Source: a phage. Taken from it: a stretch of DNA of 64,000 nt. The stretch's first letter is position 1; every line of letters starts with the position of its first letter. A model generated the notes under the pieces. The model made no database searches and was not told where the DNA came from. It was given only the letters and a program-made list of their open reading frames with translations. The position numbers and the translations under genes are program-made. This document shows, piece by piece, positions 3,934 to 36,121 of the stretch. The stretch lies in the sequence record NC_103192.1. One strand, given 5' to 3'.

Positions 3934-4308
3934 ATGATCACCACTCAATATTCTGATATCGTGCTCGGCAAAGTAGATGCAAGCGATGCAGGTTTCAACT
4001 TTAAAGAGATTGAAATTACCCTTACTGCTGATCACGTTGCTGGCGCAGTAGTTACCAAAACTGGCACTCTGGCTAATCAAGATGGCACAGATACCTTTGG
4101 TGTACTGGTTGACCGCGCTCTTCTGCCTGACGATTCTGGTAAAGTTAATCTGGCAGAGCCTCTGAAAGTTGGCGAGAAGTATAAACTGGTTGTTGCTGTT
4201 CGTGGCGTTACTTTCGCTAAAAAACATCTTAAAGTGGCTGGCGGCACGGCTGCACCTGCTGCAGTTCTGGAAGCTCTCGAAGCCAAAGGCAACAAAGTTC
4301 AGGAATAA
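3934..4308 (+). CDS. head decoration-like protein
   Basis: 124 aa, Gly/Ala/Val-rich small protein immediately upstream of the major capsid gene, lambda gpD-like position. Confidence 0.4.
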   Translation: MITTQYSDIVLGKVDASDAGFNFKEIEITLTADHVAGAVVTKTGTLANQDGTDTFGVLVDRALLPDDSGKVNLAEPLKVGEKYKLVVAVRGVTFAKKHLKVAGGTAAPAAVLEALEAKGNKVQE

Positions 4309-5437: not shown

Positions 5438-6286
5438 GTGAAGCGAACCGTCTACCCAGTTGAGTATGATCCTCTATTAAGAGTTTTCAACAATCAGTTA
5501 AGTTTTTATCAATTTTTAGCACAATATAACCCAGAAATCAATGTTGGCTTATCAGCCCTGCTGCCACCAACAGAATTCGTTATCGGCAGTGTTCACTATC
5601 CGTGCAGAACGATTGTAGACTTCTTCGAGAAGATTGCAAAACATACAGGCCTGCCAATTGATACTGGTATTTCAACTATCCGTATGGGTGTTATTCTTCT
5701 GTTCTTCACAGAGAACCTTGATGAAAGCACTTTAACACTGCAAAGCGGGGATGTCAATATTACACTCACCCCGTCAGTGTTTAAAGAGGTAGACGCTGCT
5801 TTCCAAGTTTCCGTGGCAGAGGGCCATCTATGGGACCCTGTAGGGATGCCTAAAAAAGTGACCATAAACGATGAGCAATGCAACATTGTTTATGAAGAAG
5901 ATACCCAAACTTTCACCATTGAGTGGCCTAAGAAACGTTCTCAGGTTGTGAATCTTGGGCTGACCTCTACGGTAGCTCCACCGCCTGAACCAGAGCCGGA
6001 GCCGCCTGTAGGTCCTACTGAACCTGGTGGTGGCGGTGAGGAATCCCAAGGCCCGACTGTACCTGAGGAAGGCACTGAGCAGGATCCTGAACAGGCACAA
6101 GAATCAAGATCTTCTCACGGCGATGTTGATGCCATACTGCAGCAAGCCGCAGCTCTTAACAACGAAGATGACAAGAGTGGTTCGAAAGATGCACTCCAAA
6201 CCTTCGCTAAAGAGCACGGTGTTACCTTAAGTAAGGCAAAAACTTTCCAAAATATGATGAAAGATTTTGAGGCTGCACTGGCATAA
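5438..6286 (+). CDS. hypothetical virion protein with Pro/Glu-rich linker
   Basis: 282 aa, GTG start with AGGAG RBS; low-complexity PPPEPEPEPPVGPTEPGGGGEE segment. Confidence 0.45.
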   Translation: MKRTVYPVEYDPLLRVFNNQLSFYQFLAQYNPEINVGLSALLPPTEFVIGSVHYPCRTIVDFFEKIAKHTGLPIDTGISTIRMGVILLFFTENLDESTLTLQSGDVNITLTPSVFKEVDAAFQVSVAEGHLWDPVGMPKKVTINDEQCNIVYEEDTQTFTIEWPKKRSQVVNLGLTSTVAPPPEPEPEPPVGPTEPGGGGEESQGPTVPEEGTEQDPEQAQESRSSHGDVDAILQQAAALNNEDDKSGSKDALQTFAKEHGVTLSKAKTFQNMMKDFEAALA

Positions 6287-9933: not shown

Positions 9934-10407
9934 ATGGAAACTCAAATTTTAACTCCTTATGCGTATGACCCTAAAAAGGTCAAACTGTATCTGATGCAGC
10001 AGCGTGTCACTGGCTTCGCTGCTGACACCAAGATTGTTGTTTCAAGAAACGAAGACAACATCTACCCTCATGTTGGTGTGGATGGCGAAATGTCTGCAGC
10101 CCTGTCTCGTAACCAATCTGGTGTTATGACTGTGTCTTTGCAGAACACTTCTGTATGGAACGCTTACCTTTCTGACTGGCAGAAACAGGCATCTATTACT
10201 GGTCTGGTATTCTTCCCGGTTCTACTGGAAGGTAGCCAGGGTCCTGGTATTGCTACAATCGGTTGGATCCAGAAACAGCCTGACCTGACTTACGGAACTG
10301 AAGTAGGTCAACTGGACTGGGATATCGGTATTCTGGATGCATGGCTCAACCGTGACAACATCACTGGTGCTCTCACTGGCCTCGCAGGTCTTGCAGGTAT
10401 TATCTAA
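9934..10407 (+). CDS. putative tail tube protein
   Basis: 157 aa, position between sheath-like gene and chaperones; followed by strong terminator. Confidence 0.5.
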   Translation: METQILTPYAYDPKKVKLYLMQQRVTGFAADTKIVVSRNEDNIYPHVGVDGEMSAALSRNQSGVMTVSLQNTSVWNAYLSDWQKQASITGLVFFPVLLEGSQGPGIATIGWIQKQPDLTYGTEVGQLDWDIGILDAWLNRDNITGALTGLAGLAGII

Positions 10408-10512: not shown

Positions 10513-12135
10513 ATGGCTAAATTGAGTGCAGAAAGGTTTATCGAAAAAGCTCGTAGGGTTCACGGAGATAAGTACGACTATTCTCTTATAGAATACAAAA
10601 CATGCAAAGATAAGATAGAAATAGTCTGCAATACCTGTGGTAACCACTTCAACCAGACACCGGATAACCATATAAATCTAAAAAGAGGGTGCCCTGTTTG
10701 TGGAGCTGAGAGATCTGCAAAATCAAGAAAGGGTAAGAAATTCCCCCATGAGCGTGGTAACAGGTGCACTACAGAAGAGTGGATCAAGAAGGTACTAAAA
10801 AGATACCCTGAAAATGCTGAAAAGTATGATTATAGTCATGTAGTGTACAAGACCTCTGGAGATAAGGTTGAGATTCATTGCAAAATGTGCGGAAGAATAA
10901 TGCACCAGAAACCTAGCAAGCATTTATCAGGGCAAGGATGCAAGACTTGCGCAGCAAGATCTGTTTCTGCGAAAAAAGTTCCTAGCTTCCAAGAAATAGT
11001 TGAGAGATGTGTAGAAGTGCATGGTAGTGATTATGAGTATTTTGAAGACTCTTATGTGAACACCTCAACACCTATGATGATGCGCCACAAAGAGTGTGGG
11101 AATATCTTCATGCAGCGTCCTGAATTCCATTACGGGAAAGGACAAGGATGCCCTCGTTGCTGTCGAAATCAGTCTAATGGTGAGAAAGAGCTCCTGACGT
11201 TCATTAAAAGTGTGTATAGCGGCGATATTGAAGAGAACGTGCGTATTCTGGACAACTTTAAGGATCCTTCCAAGAAAAAGATGGAGCTGGACATTTATGT
11301 TCCGGAGCTTAAGCTTGCTGTGGAATATAATGGTGCCTACTGGCACTCTGTAGACAGTAAGGGGAAATGGTACCACATCCTGAAAAGGAAGGCCTGTGAA
11401 AAACAAGGTATTCGCATGTTGTCTATCTGGGATTGTGATTGGCAGGATGCTCGGAAAAGACCTATCATTGAGAGATATCTCAAGAATGCTTTAGGAGTCA
11501 AAGACGAGAAGACCGTCTATGCCAGAAAGTGCACAGTTAAAGATGTGGACAATAAAACTTACCGTGACTTTATGGAGAAAAACCACATTCAAGGGTATGC
11601 CCCCGCCAAGGAAGTGAAGAAGGGTCTGTTTACATCTGACGGCGAACTGGTAGCTTGTATGAGTTTTAAAATACTGAAAAACAGAGATCAAAAGGTAACC
11701 CCTTTCGTTATGTGGGATATGGTAAGGTATGCAACAAGCTGTAACGTTCCCGGTGGGCGTAGTAAGCTGTTTAAGCATATCCGAGAAGAGTTTAAGATGG
11801 ATCATGTTCAATCCTTCCTTGACAGAGATTACTTCACAGGCGTGTCCTATAAGGAGGATGGCTGGATTTTGGCAGAGGACGATCAGGTGTCTACTAGCTT
11901 CTGGAGCTACCGTGGTGGCAGAATGCCGAGGCAGGCGTGGTGGAAGTCAAACATCCCAGAGACACTGAAGCATCTCGGGTTGGACGAGTCCTTATACGAT
12001 CCTGAGAAAACACAAGAGTGGAATGCCAAAAATGCAGGCTGCTATATCCTTGAAAACAGTGGCAACTCCCGCTTTGAATGGCACAGCGATGAAGGTAAAA
12101 ATGATCCTGCATACTTGGATTGGTTGAAAGGTTAA
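10513..12135 (+). CDS. free-standing homing-endonuclease-like protein
   Basis: 540 aa; three N-terminal repeats each with paired CxxC motifs (CNTCGN...GCPVCG; CKMCGR...GCKTC; HKECGN...GCPRCC); central ELDIYVPELKLAVEYNGAYWHS resembles a PD-(D/E)xK (Vsr-like) nuclease core; own promoter and terminator. Confidence 0.5.
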   Translation: MAKLSAERFIEKARRVHGDKYDYSLIEYKTCKDKIEIVCNTCGNHFNQTPDNHINLKRGCPVCGAERSAKSRKGKKFPHERGNRCTTEEWIKKVLKRYPENAEKYDYSHVVYKTSGDKVEIHCKMCGRIMHQKPSKHLSGQGCKTCAARSVSAKKVPSFQEIVERCVEVHGSDYEYFEDSYVNTSTPMMMRHKECGNIFMQRPEFHYGKGQGCPRCCRNQSNGEKELLTFIKSVYSGDIEENVRILDNFKDPSKKKMELDIYVPELKLAVEYNGAYWHSVDSKGKWYHILKRKACEKQGIRMLSIWDCDWQDARKRPIIERYLKNALGVKDEKTVYARKCTVKDVDNKTYRDFMEKNHIQGYAPAKEVKKGLFTSDGELVACMSFKILKNRDQKVTPFVMWDMVRYATSCNVPGGRSKLFKHIREEFKMDHVQSFLDRDYFTGVSYKEDGWILAEDDQVSTSFWSYRGGRMPRQAWWKSNIPETLKHLGLDESLYDPEKTQEWNAKNAGCYILENSGNSRFEWHSDEGKNDPAYLDWLKG

Positions 12136-12208: not shown

Positions 12209-12682
12209 ATGGCTATAAACTTTAGACCTACAACAGAGATTGATTTAGCAGGGCACAACTTTGTGATCACCCACTGGGGACCGATGAAGGCAATGAAAAA
12301 CATGCCTAAAATCGGTAAGATTGTAGCTGTCCCGCTAGGTGCTATCGGTGGATCTATTCTCTCAGGCGGTCAGAATATGGCAGAGGTACTTCCTACAGCC
12401 CTGGCTTACCTGTTTCAAGAACTTGATGATAACTCTATTGAAGAGTTATTTAAAATCTTGTTCGAAGATATTACCGTGGATGGTGTGGATAAGCTTAACC
12501 CTGATGTTGTGTTTGCAGGGCATCTGCTGGAGATGATTAAGCTGGCAGGTAAGGTTCTGGAGGTTAACTACGGCTGTTTTTTCACACAAGACGGTTTAGG
12601 AAGCCTTCTGGAGATGTTACAGCAGATGGGTATGATTCAGCAGGTGAACAGTCTGGATCAGACTCCGGAAGAGCAGGAATAA
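12209..12682 (+). CDS. tail assembly chaperone (G-like)
   Basis: 157 aa directly upstream of the tape measure gene; contains slippery heptamer; acidic C-terminus. Confidence 0.6.
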   Translation: MAINFRPTTEIDLAGHNFVITHWGPMKAMKNMPKIGKIVAVPLGAIGGSILSGGQNMAEVLPTALAYLFQELDDNSIEELFKILFEDITVDGVDKLNPDVVFAGHLLEMIKLAGKVLEVNYGCFFTQDGLGSLLEMLQQMGMIQQVNSLDQTPEEQE

Positions 12683-19129: not shown

Positions 19130-19798
19130 ATGGCTGTAGCTTATCCTACAATACCAATCCCAGATCTTGAAGATGCAGAAACAGTCTTGAGTGATGACTT
19201 CTTGGTTGTCAACCAGACTGACGGGACAAGAAAGGCTAAGATTGATGATGTTGTCAATGATCTTAGCATTACTAAAATAGTTTATTTCACAGAGGGCGGT
19301 TATCTTAAGAGCAAGAAGGATTTTGCTTATGATCCGGAAACTAAGCGCTACTACACATGGAATGGAGATTATCCTAAAATAATTCTCCCAGATTCCACTG
19401 TAGAGGGTGCCGGAGGTGTGTCTGCAAAAGCATGGTCTGTTTTTGGAGAGCTTGCTGCAACTTCTTCAGGTAGGATAGTTGATTACGGCTCTATTGGTGG
19501 TCAACTTGACATGGATCTTGACGTTGCAGACACGTTTAAAGTTCGGCTCACTTCAAACACCACAATCTCTTTTGAAAATCAAACAGAAGGGCTCGACGGA
19601 GTGGCAAGAACTATAACTGTATGCATAACGCAGACCTCTGGTGGTAACAAAGTTTATTGGCCTGACAATGTTAAATGGGCCTACGGAAGAGATCCTATCC
19701 TAACATTTACAGCTGGCGCAACAGATATTTTCAAGTTGGAAACCTATGATAATGGGCTAACTTGGTACGGGGCATTGATCATCGCAGGAGCTATCTAA
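19130..19798 (+). CDS. short fibre/adaptor protein with conserved N-terminal anchor domain
   Basis: first ~100 aa (DDFLVVNQTDGTRKAKIDDVV...FTEGGYLKSKKDFAYDPE...AKAW) are clearly paralogous to the N-terminus of the 22434 gene product. Confidence 0.45.
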   Translation: MAVAYPTIPIPDLEDAETVLSDDFLVVNQTDGTRKAKIDDVVNDLSITKIVYFTEGGYLKSKKDFAYDPETKRYYTWNGDYPKIILPDSTVEGAGGVSAKAWSVFGELAATSSGRIVDYGSIGGQLDMDLDVADTFKVRLTSNTTISFENQTEGLDGVARTITVCITQTSGGNKVYWPDNVKWAYGRDPILTFTAGATDIFKLETYDNGLTWYGALIIAGAI

Positions 19799-22433: not shown

Positions 22434-25400
22434 ATGGCTGATATTAAAGTTGTCAGAATTGAATCTCTTCCTGCCACTACTGCAGTGACAGAGGATGATT
22501 ACCTGGTTGTTCAACAACCAGACCTGACCCGTCGTGTAAAAATTGGCGATGTTGTCCATGTGGATGGGACTGTTTCTCATGTAATCTCCTTTAAGGAAGG
22601 TGGTAAGTTAAACGGCCCAATGGATTTTGCCTACTTCGAAGAGGAAGACCTCTACCTGCGTTGGAAAGGCGAATTTCCGCACACCGTTCCTGCACTGTCT
22701 TCACCTTACGCTGATGGTGGGATTACCGATGCTGCATGGATGGTATATACAGATCCGTCCTTAAGGGAGGAGCTGGAGTCTACCATTGGCGCATCTATGA
22801 TCATGACAGCCGAAGGGCAGTCTGTCCAGGATGTAATGGATGTTACGGTTCAGACAGCCAACGATGCTAAAGCACTTGCACAGCGGGTAGATTTTGGTAC
22901 AGTGCATACTGTAGGCGATGTTATTCACCTTGTCAACTTTGTTGGTCCTGCAGTTATTGAAGAGGGAAGAACTACTAACTACCCTTCTGTAGCAGCTGGT
23001 GAAAAATTTCTGAACGGTGTGGTATCTCGTCGTGATACTACAACTGTTGATGGTATTTTCCGTGGTGCTACCTCTGGAGCCATGTATACCATTGCAGTAA
23101 CCAATGGTGTGGCAACAACAAAAAGAATAGCCCTTCGTGATGAATTTAAACGCCTGGAGGCAAACAACCCAACAAGAACAATTATCCGTGCCGGAGATGA
23201 TTTAAACACGGCAGGGTACTTGCAGCTTGATGCAACAGGTCGTTGGGGTATGTGGAACCAACAAACAGCCTCGTGGCAACCTCTTGCTATAGAGCAAGGC
23301 GGCACAGGGGCCAGAGATGCCGCAGGTGCACGCATTAATTTAGGGGCTTTCTATAAGCAACGTGCAGCCCTTGAGTCAAATTTTAATATCAATAACTTGA
23401 CTGGTAATCAGGATGGTATATACTACCAGCCGATGACTGCTTATGCAACTGAGGCAAATGGTTACCCTGCAGGTTCTGGTGCTGGTCACTTGATTGTCTG
23501 GCAGAACAATGCTAACGGCGGTACAGGTTGTCGTCAGGAATACTATCCATTCTCTAACGTAGATGTTTGGTATTTGAGAACCTATCAGGCCAACACAAAT
23601 CAGTGGACCGCATGGCAGCCGATGGTCAGACCTCGTAACGATGAGACCTTTAGATCGCACATCGGTCTTGGGTCTAGGAATTCTCCTACCTTCGGGAACC
23701 TTTACTTATCTCAAAGTTCTGCTAATGTTAAGTCGGCATCTGGCATTGTTAACGGGGACAAATACAGTGCTGACGGTGTCCTTGAGCATGGGTATAGGAT
23801 CTATTCCGAGGTAAGAGACGACAATAAGGCGTGGTTAACAATCCACCTGCACAAAGGGGCAAAAGGGTCTGAAACTCATAAATATTTAGGTTTCCGCGAA
23901 GACGGTGTATTAGACTGTCCTAAATACATGCAGGTTGGGGATCTTACTGGTCAGTTGACAAACTGGGGACTTGGAGAGTGGATTCGTAGCTCAGGAGCAG
24001 AAAGAGGCTTCTGGGGGTCCAAGAAAGCCGCCAAGATGGTCATCTGGGATGGTGGGATGGATGAGTCTGGTAACGGCACTCTGGAATGGGGTGTTTATAA
24101 CAACCGGAAGGCCAAGTGGGAACCTTTACCTCACGCCGCAGGTGGTACTGGGGCTACAACTTTAGCAGAAGCTCAAAACCTGTTTAGAATACCTATGGCA
24201 GGTGGGGTTAAGGATTTCTTAACTCTACCAAGAACAGCAGCCATGGTAGATGGTAAATATTACCCTATTATTGTAAGAACAGATCCGTACTATGCATCAG
24301 CTGTTGGGACAGATATTACAATAGTTACAAGATCCTCTGCTGGCGACGACCCTATGAACTGCGCAACACTCCAGTGTCATTACAGAACTGGTGGTTGGAC
24401 AGATCGTGGAGACTCTTTTACTGGTGTTGTAAACTTCTACCAGAACGAAAGAGCAATACTTGGCTGTGTTTCTCCTACTCGCGGAAAACAAGAGTATGTT
24501 GCTTTTTATGTAGAGGCTAGAGCTTTCCCGGTAAGCGTATATACAAGCCGAAACGTGCTTGAGGTATTTACCAGAGAAAATGACTGGCAGGTAGGGAATG
24601 TAACTGATAATCAGGACGGTGTTAAGTTTTGTGCTCCGTTAGAGTCGGCAGACTTAAATCTTGCGATCAAGGGTGGTGGTGTAACAAACACCAGACCTCT
24701 GGTTGAGTTCAAGGGAACACCTGGGTTCTATACAGGCGGTAGTACAGATCGGCACTATGTAGGCACACCTGACAGAATGGTTCTAATGAGTAAGACAGAA
24801 ATGCCTCCTGTAGAGATGTGGTACAACGGTCTTAACTACATTTGCCCAGGCAGCCAAACCACCAGGAAAGCACTGTTCTCTAACGCAGGGTTCCAAGCTG
24901 CATCGGAAGGAACAGAGGATCTGATCAACAATACCTTTACCTCTAAATGCGGTAATGGCGCTGGTCTCAAAGGTCAGGCAGAGTTCAGATCTACTCCAGA
25001 GGCTGGTCAAGTTATTGTTCGTGATGTTGTAGGTTCTGCTCACAGATTCTACAATTTCAATAAAGATGGTACTTTCTCAGCTCCTGGTGGTTTTGTATGT
25101 CATACTGGTGCAGACTGGAACAACCAGTTCGGGCCTAACAACCCGTCAAAAATAATGGCTGGCAACGTCAACGGGCCAGAAGGTTCGATGGTTGTTGGTG
25201 GACTGTCTGTGGCGTTTTCTGGGAATTATGCTTTCCAGATAGCTGGTCGCCTTGATCAGTTGTATACCAGATCTATCGAAGGTGGTACTCATAGACCGTG
25301 GAACAAAATCTTCTCACACAAAGGTGCAGGTCTTGACTCTACAGACCTAAACACTTACGATGGTACTCGTGAGGGCATTTACCACCAACCATTCGATGCC

Positions 25401-26249
25401 AACTCAACATCTGAAAGACATTACCCGGCACCATATGCTGGTCACCTAATTGTTTACCAGAACAATACAAACAATCCGAGAGGCTGCGTACAGGAGTACA
25501 TTACACGTTTTGGTGACAGATACACGCGTGTTGGTAACATGGATAGAACTGGTTCCACTTATATGTGGGAAGTTTGGCGGCATGATTCTGGTAAAGCTAT
25601 CCAGTTACGCCCGAACCGCAATGTTGATGAAACAGATAAAGAGCTGTGCATTCATGTTGGTGGTTCTGAAAATCCCAGCAACAACGGTAACTTACCTAAG
25701 GATAATGCTGTGCTCCATTATTGGGGCAACGGCAGCACAGGAAATCGTCCAAACGTGTTAGAGTTTAAGGTTCTTGACGATTCTCAAGCAAATTGGGTAT
25801 GGCATTGTGGTACCTTGCCGGATAAATCAAGATATCTTTCTGTAAACGGTGCAGTAAACTGTGTATCCGTGAACCAAAACTCTGACCGCGACCTGAAGGA
25901 TAACATAGAAGTTATTCCTAACGCGTTAGAAGCTATCCGGAAGATGAATGGCTATACCTACACTTTAAAAGAGAATGGTATGCCTTACGCAGGGGTAATT
26001 GCTCAAGAGGTTATGGAAGCATTACCTGAAGCGGTTGGATCTTTCGTGCAAAGGAAAGAGGCTCCTGATCCCACTCAAGATGGAACTCCTTTGATAACAG
26101 AGGAAAGATTCTACAGCGTGGATTACGCAGCTGTGACAGGCTTGCTTGTCCAAGTTTGTAGGGAACAGGATGATAAAATAACCGCCCTTGAGGAACAGGT
26201 TAAAAAATTGACAGAGGTTGTTACTGGGTTGCAAGAGAAACTGAAGTAA
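22434..26249 (+). CDS. long tail fibre with C-terminal intramolecular chaperone (peptidase S74-like) domain
   Basis: 1271 aa; N-terminal anchor shared with the 19130 gene product; C-terminal ~140 aa (...NQNSDRDLKDNIEVIPNALEAIRKMNGYTYTLKENG...) matches the self-cleaving chaperone domain of endosialidase/T5 L-shaped fibre type proteins. Confidence 0.7.
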   Translation: MADIKVVRIESLPATTAVTEDDYLVVQQPDLTRRVKIGDVVHVDGTVSHVISFKEGGKLNGPMDFAYFEEEDLYLRWKGEFPHTVPALSSPYADGGITDAAWMVYTDPSLREELESTIGASMIMTAEGQSVQDVMDVTVQTANDAKALAQRVDFGTVHTVGDVIHLVNFVGPAVIEEGRTTNYPSVAAGEKFLNGVVSRRDTTTVDGIFRGATSGAMYTIAVTNGVATTKRIALRDEFKRLEANNPTRTIIRAGDDLNTAGYLQLDATGRWGMWNQQTASWQPLAIEQGGTGARDAAGARINLGAFYKQRAALESNFNINNLTGNQDGIYYQPMTAYATEANGYPAGSGAGHLIVWQNNANGGTGCRQEYYPFSNVDVWYLRTYQANTNQWTAWQPMVRPRNDETFRSHIGLGSRNSPTFGNLYLSQSSANVKSASGIVNGDKYSADGVLEHGYRIYSEVRDDNKAWLTIHLHKGAKGSETHKYLGFREDGVLDCPKYMQVGDLTGQLTNWGLGEWIRSSGAERGFWGSKKAAKMVIWDGGMDESGNGTLEWGVYNNRKAKWEPLPHAAGGTGATTLAEAQNLFRIPMAGGVKDFLTLPRTAAMVDGKYYPIIVRTDPYYASAVGTDITIVTRSSAGDDPMNCATLQCHYRTGGWTDRGDSFTGVVNFYQNERAILGCVSPTRGKQEYVAFYVEARAFPVSVYTSRNVLEVFTRENDWQVGNVTDNQDGVKFCAPLESADLNLAIKGGGVTNTRPLVEFKGTPGFYTGGSTDRHYVGTPDRMVLMSKTEMPPVEMWYNGLNYICPGSQTTRKALFSNAGFQAASEGTEDLINNTFTSKCGNGAGLKGQAEFRSTPEAGQVIVRDVVGSAHRFYNFNKDGTFSAPGGFVCHTGADWNNQFGPNNPSKIMAGNVNGPEGSMVVGGLSVAFSGNYAFQIAGRLDQLYTRSIEGGTHRPWNKIFSHKGAGLDSTDLNTYDGTREGIYHQPFDANSTSERHYPAPYAGHLIVYQNNTNNPRGCVQEYITRFGDRYTRVGNMDRTGSTYMWEVWRHDSGKAIQLRPNRNVDETDKELCIHVGGSENPSNNGNLPKDNAVLHYWGNGSTGNRPNVLEFKVLDDSQANWVWHCGTLPDKSRYLSVNGAVNCVSVNQNSDRDLKDNIEVIPNALEAIRKMNGYTYTLKENGMPYAGVIAQEVMEALPEAVGSFVQRKEAPDPTQDGTPLITEERFYSVDYAAVTGLLVQVCREQDDKITALEEQVKKLTEVVTGLQEKLK

Positions 26250-26256
26250 CTGTTTT

Positions 26257-26286
26257 GCCCTCGCTTCGGCGGGGGCTTTTTGTTTG
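26257..26286 (+). terminator. rho-independent terminator with UUCG tetraloop
   Basis: GCCCTCGC-TTCG-GCGGGGGC then TTTTTGTTTG; shares 13-mer CGCTTCGGCGGGG with the terminators at 31768 and 58128. Confidence 0.75.
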
Positions 26287-33362: not shown

Positions 33363-34049
33363 ATGGCAGAGATTAAGTCGGATGTTAACCACATCCACAC
33401 TCTGCCAGATTTTGTTCAGGGGGGTCTTGATTACCTCCCTGGGGATTTTCTGGCTGAGAAGGTTAATTTAGTCACATTCTTAACCGTATACCTTAAAAGG
33501 TTGGAGAATGTTGATAAAATGCTGGTAGGCTTGGCTGAAGGAAGATTGCTTAACAATGCCAGCGGGAGATACCTTGACGAAGTTGGTAATCAACTTGGTA
33601 TTCTTAGGAATGGTCTTTCAGACGCGGATTTTCGTGCTACGCTGATTATTCAGCAGGCAGCATCATCAAGAGGTGGTACTCGCGAAGATGTCATCTCCAC
33701 CTTGCGACAATTGTTCGGAAGAGACAATTTCGATACGTGGAAAGGTGACAACTTTAGATTTGACATAAATATTAGAAAAACTTGCTTCGACATATTACAG
33801 TCCATCGATCAGATCTTAGATATGCTGCCATTGCCTTGTCATTTGCGTCTTACAGAATCGCAAGGGCAAGCTTTTGGTTTTGAAGGAGACTCTACAGCTC
33901 TTGGCTTCGGATCAGTGTGGGAAGAAAACCAGTTCGGAGTTGGTGGGCTGGCTACTTTGCTGTATGTTCCTGACGTAAGACCTGATTGGGACACCACAAC
34001 TATTTATTGTGAAAGTATTACAGTAAACGCAACTAGACAGGAGGGTTAA
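33363..34049 (+). CDS. putative baseplate wedge protein (gpI-like)
   Basis: 228 aa, immediately downstream of the J-like baseplate gene; synteny only. Confidence 0.4.
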   Translation: MAEIKSDVNHIHTLPDFVQGGLDYLPGDFLAEKVNLVTFLTVYLKRLENVDKMLVGLAEGRLLNNASGRYLDEVGNQLGILRNGLSDADFRATLIIQQAASSRGGTREDVISTLRQLFGRDNFDTWKGDNFRFDINIRKTCFDILQSIDQILDMLPLPCHLRLTESQGQAFGFEGDSTALGFGSVWEENQFGVGGLATLLYVPDVRPDWDTTTIYCESITVNATRQEG

Positions 34050-36121
34050 TGGCAACAGCTGTTTTTAAACCTTACCGTGATTACTCTACGATGGCTGCAC
34101 GGTTTCATTACCGCACAGTTCAGGATACTGCAGTTCCAGGTAGGGATTATGATCATGTTGAGGGAGATGTAACTATCCCGGTTGGAGCAACCAGTATTGA
34201 GATCCCTGTAGAAATTGTTGACAAATTGCCAAACAGGTTGCCAAGAAGCTTCTTTATGGAGTTTTCATCAAACTCCCAAGGGGTTATGATTGGAACACAA
34301 AGAGCGAAATGTACAATAGTTTCAGATGAGAATCTTGACAGAATATCTTGGGATACCGTTGAGGAGAGAATGTTTCACCCAAGATATTGGGTTACAACCA
34401 CACAGCAGACTGAAAGCACCTGCATTGTTGCGGATAATAACTGCTGTATTAACCGTTTAGTGTCAAGAACATATGGAGGCATGGCTGGGTGCATTTGGGA
34501 AACAGTTGACAAGTATGACCATTTCGGCATTGGATTTGATGATCACTACGAGATGAGAAACACCAAGCTTTGGTTCAGAATGTCAATAACCAATGCCAGC
34601 AACTTCTCCACCCCTGAAAAGATGATTATGACTGTAGACCTTGTTGACGGCACAATCATCTATGTTCCTTTAGCTCAATATGCTGTCAGCATCTCAGAGG
34701 ATAAGAATGTTGCAGAAATTCATATTGATTTCGAGGACTGCGTCGGGATGGACCAGAACAACAATATGATGGGTGTTGATCCTCGGCAGGTGAGAAAGAT
34801 TTTAATACCGCTTATGCCTAAAGATTGGGTAAGTAATAGCACAGACCCAAGAACGGAAAATGTAGAGTGCGAGTTGCGTCTAGATCTGCTTCAGCCGGAC
34901 ACAGGCTGGAAAATGATGCAACTTAACAATATCCAGGTGAAAGAGCACGACGTCGGGATCTGCACAGCATATGACGATATGTGGAACGTATCCCCTTTAA
35001 GGGTGTTGAGCAATATCAAGCGTCTGGGCTATACCGGAACCATAAATCATTATGTTGGTATGAGTCATTATTATGACTACACATGGTCAGGAACCCAATG
35101 GTCTATAAACAAAACAGGGGCTCTAAACGCTGCAGCTTATAAATGGCATGATGATTTTATGTACAATGCCAAACGACATGACTTCGACGTTATGCAGTCT
35201 GTAAGCTTCGAGCTTTATAGCGATGCCTGTCCGTTGGAATGGACCCAGAGAGACTGGAACGATAACTACGCTAAAACAGGATATACACCTTGTAGCTACC
35301 TCCTGTCTCCAACCATTGAAGAGGGTATGAATTTCCTTACTGCAGTATTTAAGAATTTTGCATCAGCCGCTATGAGAAACAACCTGCCAGTGATTATGCA
35401 GGTTGGTGAACCGTGGTGGTGGTACAATACCGATACTCGTAGACCTTGTATTTATGATTACCCTACAAAGCAGGCGTTTTATGATGAGACAGGTGAGTAT
35501 GCATTAGATATTGGGACTATTGACGATCCTAAAACTGGTGGTGTTTACGACAAGTATGTAGCATTTTGTCGTGGTAAGCTTGGCGCTCGTATTGCGGCTA
35601 TTTCAAAGGCAATAAAAGCACACGCTGCATCGGCTCAGATGACAGCTTTACTGTTTTTCCCCACTATTATGGAAACCGAGCTTACGCAAAAACTGAACCT
35701 TGCTGACCAATATAAAAAGGAAGCAGGCGCTCTTGATTTCTTCTGCACTGAGTGCTACGATTGGGTGATGCAGGGAGGTATTGAAAAGGCAAAAGAGTCT
35801 GTAAACATACCTATCGTTAAGTTAGGTTGGAAACCGTCTGAAATACAATACCTTGCAGGGTTCGTTCCTAGCAAAGAGCTTGCTCCGGTATATGGCTACG
35901 ACCCAACCAGGAATTACCAAGAATTTTTATGGAGATGTATTTGCGGAAACATGGCAACCATAGAGTATAGATACCCTGAGGTAAAACAGTATGTGTGGGC
36001 ATACCCGCAAGTAATGTCTGACAGCATCACTGTTACCGCCAGAGATTCTACCGTGCTTCATATGGGACAGGTTGCTCTGAAAGGGTATGTAGAAGATGTT
36101 GTCCCGCCAGACTTCTCATAA
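34049..36121 (+). CDS. tail fibre/spike protein with N-terminal Calx-beta-like domain
   Basis: 690 aa; residues ~15-95 (FHYRTVQDTAVPGRDYDHVEGDVTIPVGATSIEIPVEIVDK) fit the Calx-beta pattern; Trp/Tyr-rich C-terminal body. Confidence 0.5.
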   Translation: MATAVFKPYRDYSTMAARFHYRTVQDTAVPGRDYDHVEGDVTIPVGATSIEIPVEIVDKLPNRLPRSFFMEFSSNSQGVMIGTQRAKCTIVSDENLDRISWDTVEERMFHPRYWVTTTQQTESTCIVADNNCCINRLVSRTYGGMAGCIWETVDKYDHFGIGFDDHYEMRNTKLWFRMSITNASNFSTPEKMIMTVDLVDGTIIYVPLAQYAVSISEDKNVAEIHIDFEDCVGMDQNNNMMGVDPRQVRKILIPLMPKDWVSNSTDPRTENVECELRLDLLQPDTGWKMMQLNNIQVKEHDVGICTAYDDMWNVSPLRVLSNIKRLGYTGTINHYVGMSHYYDYTWSGTQWSINKTGALNAAAYKWHDDFMYNAKRHDFDVMQSVSFELYSDACPLEWTQRDWNDNYAKTGYTPCSYLLSPTIEEGMNFLTAVFKNFASAAMRNNLPVIMQVGEPWWWYNTDTRRPCIYDYPTKQAFYDETGEYALDIGTIDDPKTGGVYDKYVAFCRGKLGARIAAISKAIKAHAASAQMTALLFFPTIMETELTQKLNLADQYKKEAGALDFFCTECYDWVMQGGIEKAKESVNIPIVKLGWKPSEIQYLAGFVPSKELAPVYGYDPTRNYQEFLWRCICGNMATIEYRYPEVKQYVWAYPQVMSDSITVTARDSTVLHMGQVALKGYVEDVVPPDFS

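Follow-up and report, generated by a model that had tools for sequence, protein, structure and literature searches.

The window analysed here is the whole stretch of 64,000 nucleotides (64 kb) of DNA from phage sequence record NC_103192.1. It contains a tail-fibre gene whose 3' end raises the question of whether the encoded fibre finishes in a self-cleaving chaperone, so that the mature protein is shorter than its open reading frame (ORF). An earlier reading of the letters alone (the sequence-only reading) had proposed this from a Ser/Lys motif in the last ~140 residues. The present analysis makes it very probable that the ORF product is a lateral tail fibre of an rV5-like myophage, built as a homotrimer, and that residues 1150-1271 form its Peptidase S74 C-terminal intramolecular chaperone. 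The gene and the elements of its C-terminal domain are as follows.

22434-26249, plus strand: tail-fibre gene, 1,271 amino acids, 139.5-kDa precursor (ORF list, synteny, 84-86% nucleotide identity to fibre genes of rV5-like phages, and match to phrog_6578, tail fiber, E 0).
25878-25904, plus strand: motif N-S-D-R-D-L-K-D-N with the predicted scissile bond Asn1149/Ser1150 (alignment with T5 pb1 T-S1264-D-A-R-L-K1269).
25881-25883, plus strand: codon TCT of the predicted catalytic nucleophile Ser1150 (invariant in a 32-sequence alignment and in 80/80 IMG/VR loci).
25896-25898, plus strand: codon AAG of the predicted general base Lys1155 (invariant in three homolog alignments and in 80/80 IMG/VR loci).
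25881-26246, plus strand: C-terminal intramolecular chaperone / Peptidase_S74 domain, residues 1150-1271, 122 amino acids, 13.6 kDa, isoelectric point 4.6.

The motif NSDRDLKDN was confirmed at residues 1149-1157, its single in-frame occurrence in the fibre protein. The profile search for Peptidase_S74 that had been suggested along with the motif was positive. The whole protein matched Pfam PF13884 (Peptidase_S74, "chaperone of endosialidase") at residues 1150-1201 with an E-value of 5.6e-15; its score of 55.8 bits is well above the gathering cut-off of 22 bits. This match began exactly at Ser1150 and covered profile positions 1-57 of 58, and the 139-residue segment delimited by the sequence-only reading, searched alone, scored 60 bits (E 2.7e-16). 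When a profile built from homologs was run against the six-frame translation of the window, the S74 domain was recovered at E 4e-53 and the next best match had an E-value of 0.22. Neither six-frame hmmsearch of the window nor Pfam scans of its remaining large fibre-like ORFs revealed a second S74 domain, and an NCBIfam scan of the whole fibre protein gave no match. Homologs carry the NCBI name "pyocin knob domain-containing S74 family peptidase". As judged from these searches, the protein has a profile match above the curated threshold, and the domain opens at its N-terminal edge with a Ser-Lys dyad (S-x4-K). The domain lies at the extreme C terminus of the fibre protein (the last 122 of 1,271 residues), the trimeric state being assumed from the family.

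The assignment as an S74 intramolecular chaperone was thus borne out by the PF13884 match, and also by the alignment and invariance of the dyad and by the predicted fold, described below. The C-terminal location given by the sequence-only reading stood, but its size of ~140 residues did not. Its start at 25830 precedes the predicted cleavage point by 17 codons; the domain proper begins at 25881 and comprises 122 residues. Its end at 26249 is that of the TAA stop codon of the fibre ORF.

The catalytic residues were assigned by comparison with T5 pb1, for which crystal structures are available and in which Ser1264 is the nucleophile, activated by Lys1269, and an S1264A mutant is uncleaved (PMC4690869). 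Residue 1263 is the last of mature T5 pb1, and competition with the phage for the receptor is seen only with the cleaved form (PMC4690869). Both BLASTP and MAFFT placed AVNGTINTSDARLKNDV of T5 pb1 on SVNGAVNCVSVNQNSDRDLKDNI of the fibre, and Ser1150 and Lys1155 therefore correspond to Ser1264 and Lys1269. In a phmmer search of PDB sequences, NSDRDLKDNI of the fibre was aligned to SSDRRIKKDI of Salmonella phage S16 gp37 (6f45, E 7e-6), and the downstream GVIAQE region was aligned to the MyRF ICA domain. The S, D, R and K of the motif were invariant in all 32 aligned homologs, and every one of 80 related IMG/VR loci had the pattern x-S-D-R-[D/E]-L-K, spaced from the GVIAQE anchor as expected. 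Homologs of the 122-residue domain were present in 989 phage records, Vequintavirus, T5-like, T1-like and T-even gp37-type fibres among them. The tail fibre of NHEP1 was 100% identical over the domain, and chaperone homologs at 55-70% identity were found in many Escherichia coli prophage fibre genes.

The fold of the C terminus was predicted with an AlphaFold2 monomer model of the last 169 residues (29 aligned sequences), which reached a mean predicted local distance difference test score (pLDDT) of 80. In the model, the dyad is followed by a small body of mixed alpha/beta type, then by a long beta-hairpin and, at the C terminus, by a helix of 40 residues; the last two elements map as follows.

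26034-26120, plus strand: predicted long beta-hairpin, residues 1201-1229, equivalent to the "tentacle" of T5 pb1 and K1F (DSSP on the AlphaFold2 model).
26124-26243, plus strand: predicted 40-residue C-terminal helix, residues 1231-1270 (AlphaFold2 helix 129-168, pLDDT 82-97).

The hairpin strands were residues 99-111 and 117-127 of the 169-residue query by DSSP, with a mean pLDDT of ~65-85. On this model, three copies of the C-terminal helix would be expected to make up the coiled coil at the centre of the chaperone trimer. A coiled coil was reported for rV5 gp41 by PCOILS (PMC3606486), and the T5 chaperone is built of a coiled coil, an alpha/beta domain and hairpin tentacles (PMC4690869). 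The alpha/beta body, hairpin tentacle and C-terminal helix of the S74 fold were all present in the predicted monomer. A Foldseek search of the PDB with the model returned nine matches with E <= 1e-3, all of them chains of 7dc3 (MyRF ICA) or 3gw6 (K1F endosialidase chaperone). The significant fold matches were to 7dc3, 3gw6, 4uw8 and 3gud only, and the four solved chaperone domains matched were those of MyRF ICA, T5 pb1, K1F endosialidase and the GA-1 appendage. Searches of PDB sequences with the whole protein and with the 169-residue C terminus reached, for the domain, only S16 gp37 and MyRF and not 3GW6 or 4UW8, so the structural search was needed to make the latter link.

The nature of the carrier protein was indicated by its genomic setting. 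Megablast and gene order identify the window as the structural module of an rV5-like E. coli myophage (Vequintavirus), with ~94% nucleotide identity to rV5 itself. More than 100 rV5-like myophages were matched, with ~84-92% nucleotide identity over the fibre gene and 93-94% over the 25-kb stretch around it, and the gene order was colinear with that of Bas59 (EduardKellenberger) and rV5. The module runs from sheath, tube, tape measure and baseplate hub to a 222-residue Tail_spike_N protein and an 865-residue glycosidase-type fibre protein, and then through the 1,271-residue fibre ORF to a Dit-like protein, baseplate proteins and a gpJ-like protein of 1,279 residues. As in rV5 and Bas59, the fibre ORF is flanked by the genes for the gp42-like glycosidase fibre protein and for the Dit-like gp40. 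Its orthologs, with full-length identity of 86-88%, are rV5 gp41 (86% at the amino acid level), bas59_0026 (87%) and bas54_0027 of MaxBurger (QXV82547.1; 88%). Synteny and full-length similarity together point to a Vequintavirus gp41-type lateral tail fibre, and the orthologs bas54_0027, bas59_0026 and gp41 are labelled "lateral / L-shaped tail fibre". Three lateral fibre sets are present in the Vequintavirinae, without a settled correspondence between genes and fibres (PMC8594841). Since there are several fibre sets per phage, calling this protein "the long fibre", as had been done from the letters alone, goes beyond what is known.

Upstream of the chaperone, the following parts of the fibre protein were distinguished.

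22569-22742, plus strand: Tail_spike_N domain, residues 46-103 (Pfam PF18668, E 9.8e-10).
23385-23543, plus strand: knob-like repeat, copy 1, residues 318-370 (BLASTP between segments).
25284-25733, plus strand: hypervariable distal region, residues 951-1100 (segment identities against rV5 gp41 and Bas59).
25344-25499, plus strand: knob-like repeat, copy 2, residues 971-1022, where the variable distal region begins (BLASTP between segments).
25734-25880, plus strand: last 49 residues of the predicted mature fibre, residues 1101-1149, ending ...VNGAVNCVSVNQN (90% identity to rV5 and Bas59).

The N terminus also gave PDB sequence matches to tailspike and fibre N termini (9occ, 9d84, 9lna and 4qnl), and the Tail_spike_N domain is likely, from these similarities, to attach the fibre to the baseplate or to another fibre. 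The 222-residue protein (19130-19798, plus strand), an ortholog of rV5 gp43 that is named "sialidase domain protein" in Bas59, also matched Pfam Tail_spike_N (TSP1/gp66-type). The presence of this domain in both proteins suggests docking on a common branched adaptor and attachment within a branched fibre complex. The two knob-like copies were 51% identical over 53 residues (BLASTP, E 1e-14) and had in common the motif G-x-LIV-x-QNN-x-N-x-x-GC-x-QEY.

Identity to the orthologs was 90-100% in most segments, but within residues 951-1100 it fell to 34-58% against rV5 gp41 and 58-64% against Bas59. It returned to 90-95% in the last 49 mature residues and the chaperone, and a VNG motif within those 49 residues was kept in homologs. 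The variable, presumably receptor-binding, part therefore lies directly upstream of a conserved block composed of the tip end and the chaperone. Judged by this pattern, residues 951-1100 are probably the receptor-binding part of the mature fibre, and residues 1101-1149 are expected to be the part templated by the chaperone. Residues 951-1100 appear to be an allelic hot spot, consistent with a receptor-binding part that is exchanged between conserved flanks.

By analogy with K1F endosialidase and T5 pb1, the C-terminal helix would register three nascent chains as a trimeric coiled coil. The alpha/beta body and the long beta-hairpin tentacle would act as a template on which the intertwined distal tip of the fibre folds, and, after correct trimerisation of the tip, Ser1150 activated by Lys1155 would cut the Asn1149-Ser1150 bond. 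The acidic 122-residue fragment would then leave without being incorporated, converting the 139.5-kDa precursor to a mature chain of 1,149 residues and 125.9 kDa, and the mature fibre, with its receptor-binding tip exposed, would be built into the virion. The fibre gene is followed not by a tail-fibre assembly gene but by a Dit-like ORF (phrog_1302), and the module's one Tfa-like gene sits with the short tail fibres. The lack of a separate fibre-assembly gene after the fibre gene fits an intramolecular chaperone.

Observations on virions of related phages bear on this proposal. By mass spectrometry, rV5 gp41 is a virion protein (8 peptides, 8.1% coverage; rV5 Table S5), and all eight peptides map to residues 434-1073, upstream of the rV5 site at residue 1151. 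More informative is MaxBurger, where the cryo-electron microscopy map of an S74-bearing fibre is without density for the peptidase domain (RBPseg, Sci Adv 2025; PMC12143355). The ORF bas54_0027 of this phage has the same Pfam architecture as the fibre ORF (Tail_spike_N ... Peptidase_S74) and the same S74 match. A 2026 structure paper on phi92 contained nothing on an S74-bearing ortholog.

Several points weigh against release of a self-cleaving chaperone from this fibre. The chaperone function, the exact bond cut and the absence of the domain from the virions of this phage are inferred by analogy. The rV5 peptide pattern carries little weight because the domain accounts for just 6 of the 52 suitable tryptic peptides, and finding none of them among eight has a probability of ~0.38. 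In the fibre analysed here, DNIEVIPNALEAIR and FYSVDYAAVTGLLVQVCR are example peptides within residues 1150-1271. The MaxBurger map is of low resolution (7-9 A), and the fibre that it depicts, RBP_11 of RBPseg, is probably bas54_0027, as judged from 88% identity and the S74 architecture. In T5 pb1, Arg1250 and Asp1239 form a folding sensor from the neighbouring subunit that couples cleavage to correct trimer formation. Arg1133 and Asp1130 of the fibre sit 17-20 residues upstream of Ser1150 and align ambiguously with this pair; Arg1133 varies among the closer homologs, and the Arg1250 sensor was not placed here. Finally, an AlphaFold2 monomer of the last 342 residues was poor (pLDDT 63, predicted template modelling score 0.33), leaving the fold of the tip undefined by the model.

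An extended reading, which we regard as unlikely, gives the same domain two further roles. Its release would expose a docking surface for a separate, gp38-like adhesin, and the last 49 mature residues with the chaperone would act as a fixed 3' recombination arm, through which the knob region (residues 951-1100) is exchanged with E. coli prophage side-fibre genes whose chaperones are 55-70% identical. If this were true, the identity of the domain would be unchanged.

It also seems very unlikely that the S74-like domain is not processed at all and is retained in the virion as a lasting C-terminal cap or trimerisation domain, with a mature fibre of the full 1,271 residues. This possibility draws on the analogical basis for cleavage in the fibre ORF and on the non-significance of the absence of domain peptides from the rV5 proteome, and a study on other phages reportedly discusses transient or persistent "chaperone caps" on fibres. 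However, the dyad residues and SDRDLK are intact and invariant across relatives, which would be unexpected for a decayed active site. The uncleaved form of T5 pb1 is unable to bind its receptor (PMC4690869), and the missing density in MaxBurger likewise argues against a retained domain.

That the tip exposed by chaperone release leaves receptor binding to a separate small adhesin docked on it, as gp38 is docked on T2/S16-type gp37, appears highly improbable. The closest solved sequence relative is indeed S16 gp37 (6f45), a distal long tail fibre of a myovirus that also has a C-terminal S74 domain and that bears gp38 after processing. However, no gp38-like gene adjoins the fibre gene here, the downstream genes being Dit-like, baseplate and gpJ-like; the MaxBurger map is without adhesin density; and the hypervariable region lies inside the fibre itself, which fits a fibre that serves as its own receptor-binding protein. 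A chance Ser/Lys motif in a coiled-coil-rich C terminus, for which only the shortness of the motif speaks, was refuted by profile E-values of 1e-15 to 1e-53, including the six-frame profile search, by fold matches confined to chaperone domains, and by the annotation of the homologs in the 989 phage records as tail fibres.

Returning to the self-cleaving S74 chaperone, its closest counterparts are rV5 gp41 (YP_002003543, 1,272 residues), bas54_0027, bas59_0026 and the NHEP1 fibre, which are the same gene in the same syntenic position. The chaperone domains are ~92% identical (100% for NHEP1), a few substitutions being their sole difference, in contrast to the distal variable region, where identity to rV5 and Bas59 is only 34-64%. 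The S74 domain in this gene family has already been published, and the domain here is a standard, ordinary family member. Table S3 of the 2013 rV5 report lists gp41 as "L-shaped tail fiber protein" with PF13884.1 Peptidase_S74, and its text notes HHpred similarity to 3GW6 (PMC3606486). A T5 pb1-like orf40 was noted in the rV5-like phage CM1, and an S74 C-terminal domain is listed in Vequintavirinae fibres by RBPseg (PMC12143355).

More distant systems share the module in other settings. The chaperone of T5 pb1 (LtfA, the L-shaped fibre; residues 1264-1396, PDB 4UW8) is only ~13-21% identical to the domain here and has 133 rather than 122 residues. A T5-like "bullet" receptor-binding tip was also considered: BLASTP against T5 pb1 970-1396 aligned only the short dyad stretch (E 0.2), so that such a domain is unsupported by sequence, and the bullet domain has no detectable sequence similarity to residues 850-1149 of the fibre. 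The chaperone of K1F endosialidase endoNF (PDB 3GW6), the founder of MEROPS/Pfam S74, is 12% identical. This podovirus tailspike has a stalk formed by a triple beta-helix; the carrier here is a myovirus fibre with knob domains. S16/T2-type gp37 (PDB 6F45), the best PDB sequence match, differs from the present fibre in its separate adhesin. The ICA domain of MyRF (PDB 7DC3) is the same self-cleaving trimerisation module in an unrelated context, a eukaryotic membrane-bound transcription factor.

The main value of the result is a correct annotation, with little beyond it. By analogy with the processed fibres, a virion protein of ~126 kDa would be expected rather than one of 139.5 kDa, and recombinant fibre or receptor-binding constructs would need residues 1150-1271 for folding and then lose them. 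With an S1150A change, the fibre would remain uncleaved and, as in T5, would probably be unable to bind its receptor. For host-range engineering, residues 951-1149 are the part to target, with the chaperone kept intact.

Immediately past the fibre gene, an intrinsic terminator was found.

26257-26286, plus strand: intrinsic terminator, 8-bp stem with seven G-C pairs and a 4-nucleotide loop, followed by a T run.

This strong terminator (GCCCTCGC-TTCG-GCGGGGGC, then TTTTTGTTTG) begins 8 nucleotides past the stop codon, which suggests that the fibre gene ends a transcription unit or that read-through into the Dit-like gene is attenuated.

An ortholog of the fibre gene with two in-frame TGA codons, at 4270-4278 and 5866-5874, was found on metagenome scaffold VALL22-1 scaffold_49 (ENA, 134,792 bp). 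Because of these codons, the gene was called as three pieces of 511, 502 and 185 residues. Each of them stands in the context TGG-TGA-C. At the first, the window (TGG-GGA-C) and rV5 both have Gly; at the second, rV5 has Gly and the window is divergent. The TGA codons probably reflect a systematic basecalling or assembly error at G runs, or a pseudogene.

Elsewhere in the window, an HNH/homing-endonuclease ORF of 540 residues (10513-12135, plus strand; phrog_559, E 8.5e-112, without a Pfam match) sits as an insertion downstream of the tail tube gene (9934-10407) and ahead of the next conserved gene (12209-12682). Among 117 related phages, it was complete only in HMD-6 (98.8%) and partial in three, and most of the 117, including Bas59 and FV3, carry only ~160 nucleotides at this site. 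A 690-residue fibre protein (34049-36121, plus strand) combines Calx-beta, NCTSP_N and TIM-barrel_NCTSP domains (E 1e-79) and is an N4 gp65/deacetylase-type fibre, a type that the BASEL authors tie to recognition of the enterobacterial common antigen. The rV5-like module was also 94% identical to 18 GenBank records named "Campylobacter phage" (host C. jejuni), including MG065644-MG065647 and MG065690; the C. jejuni host label of this group looks doubtful.

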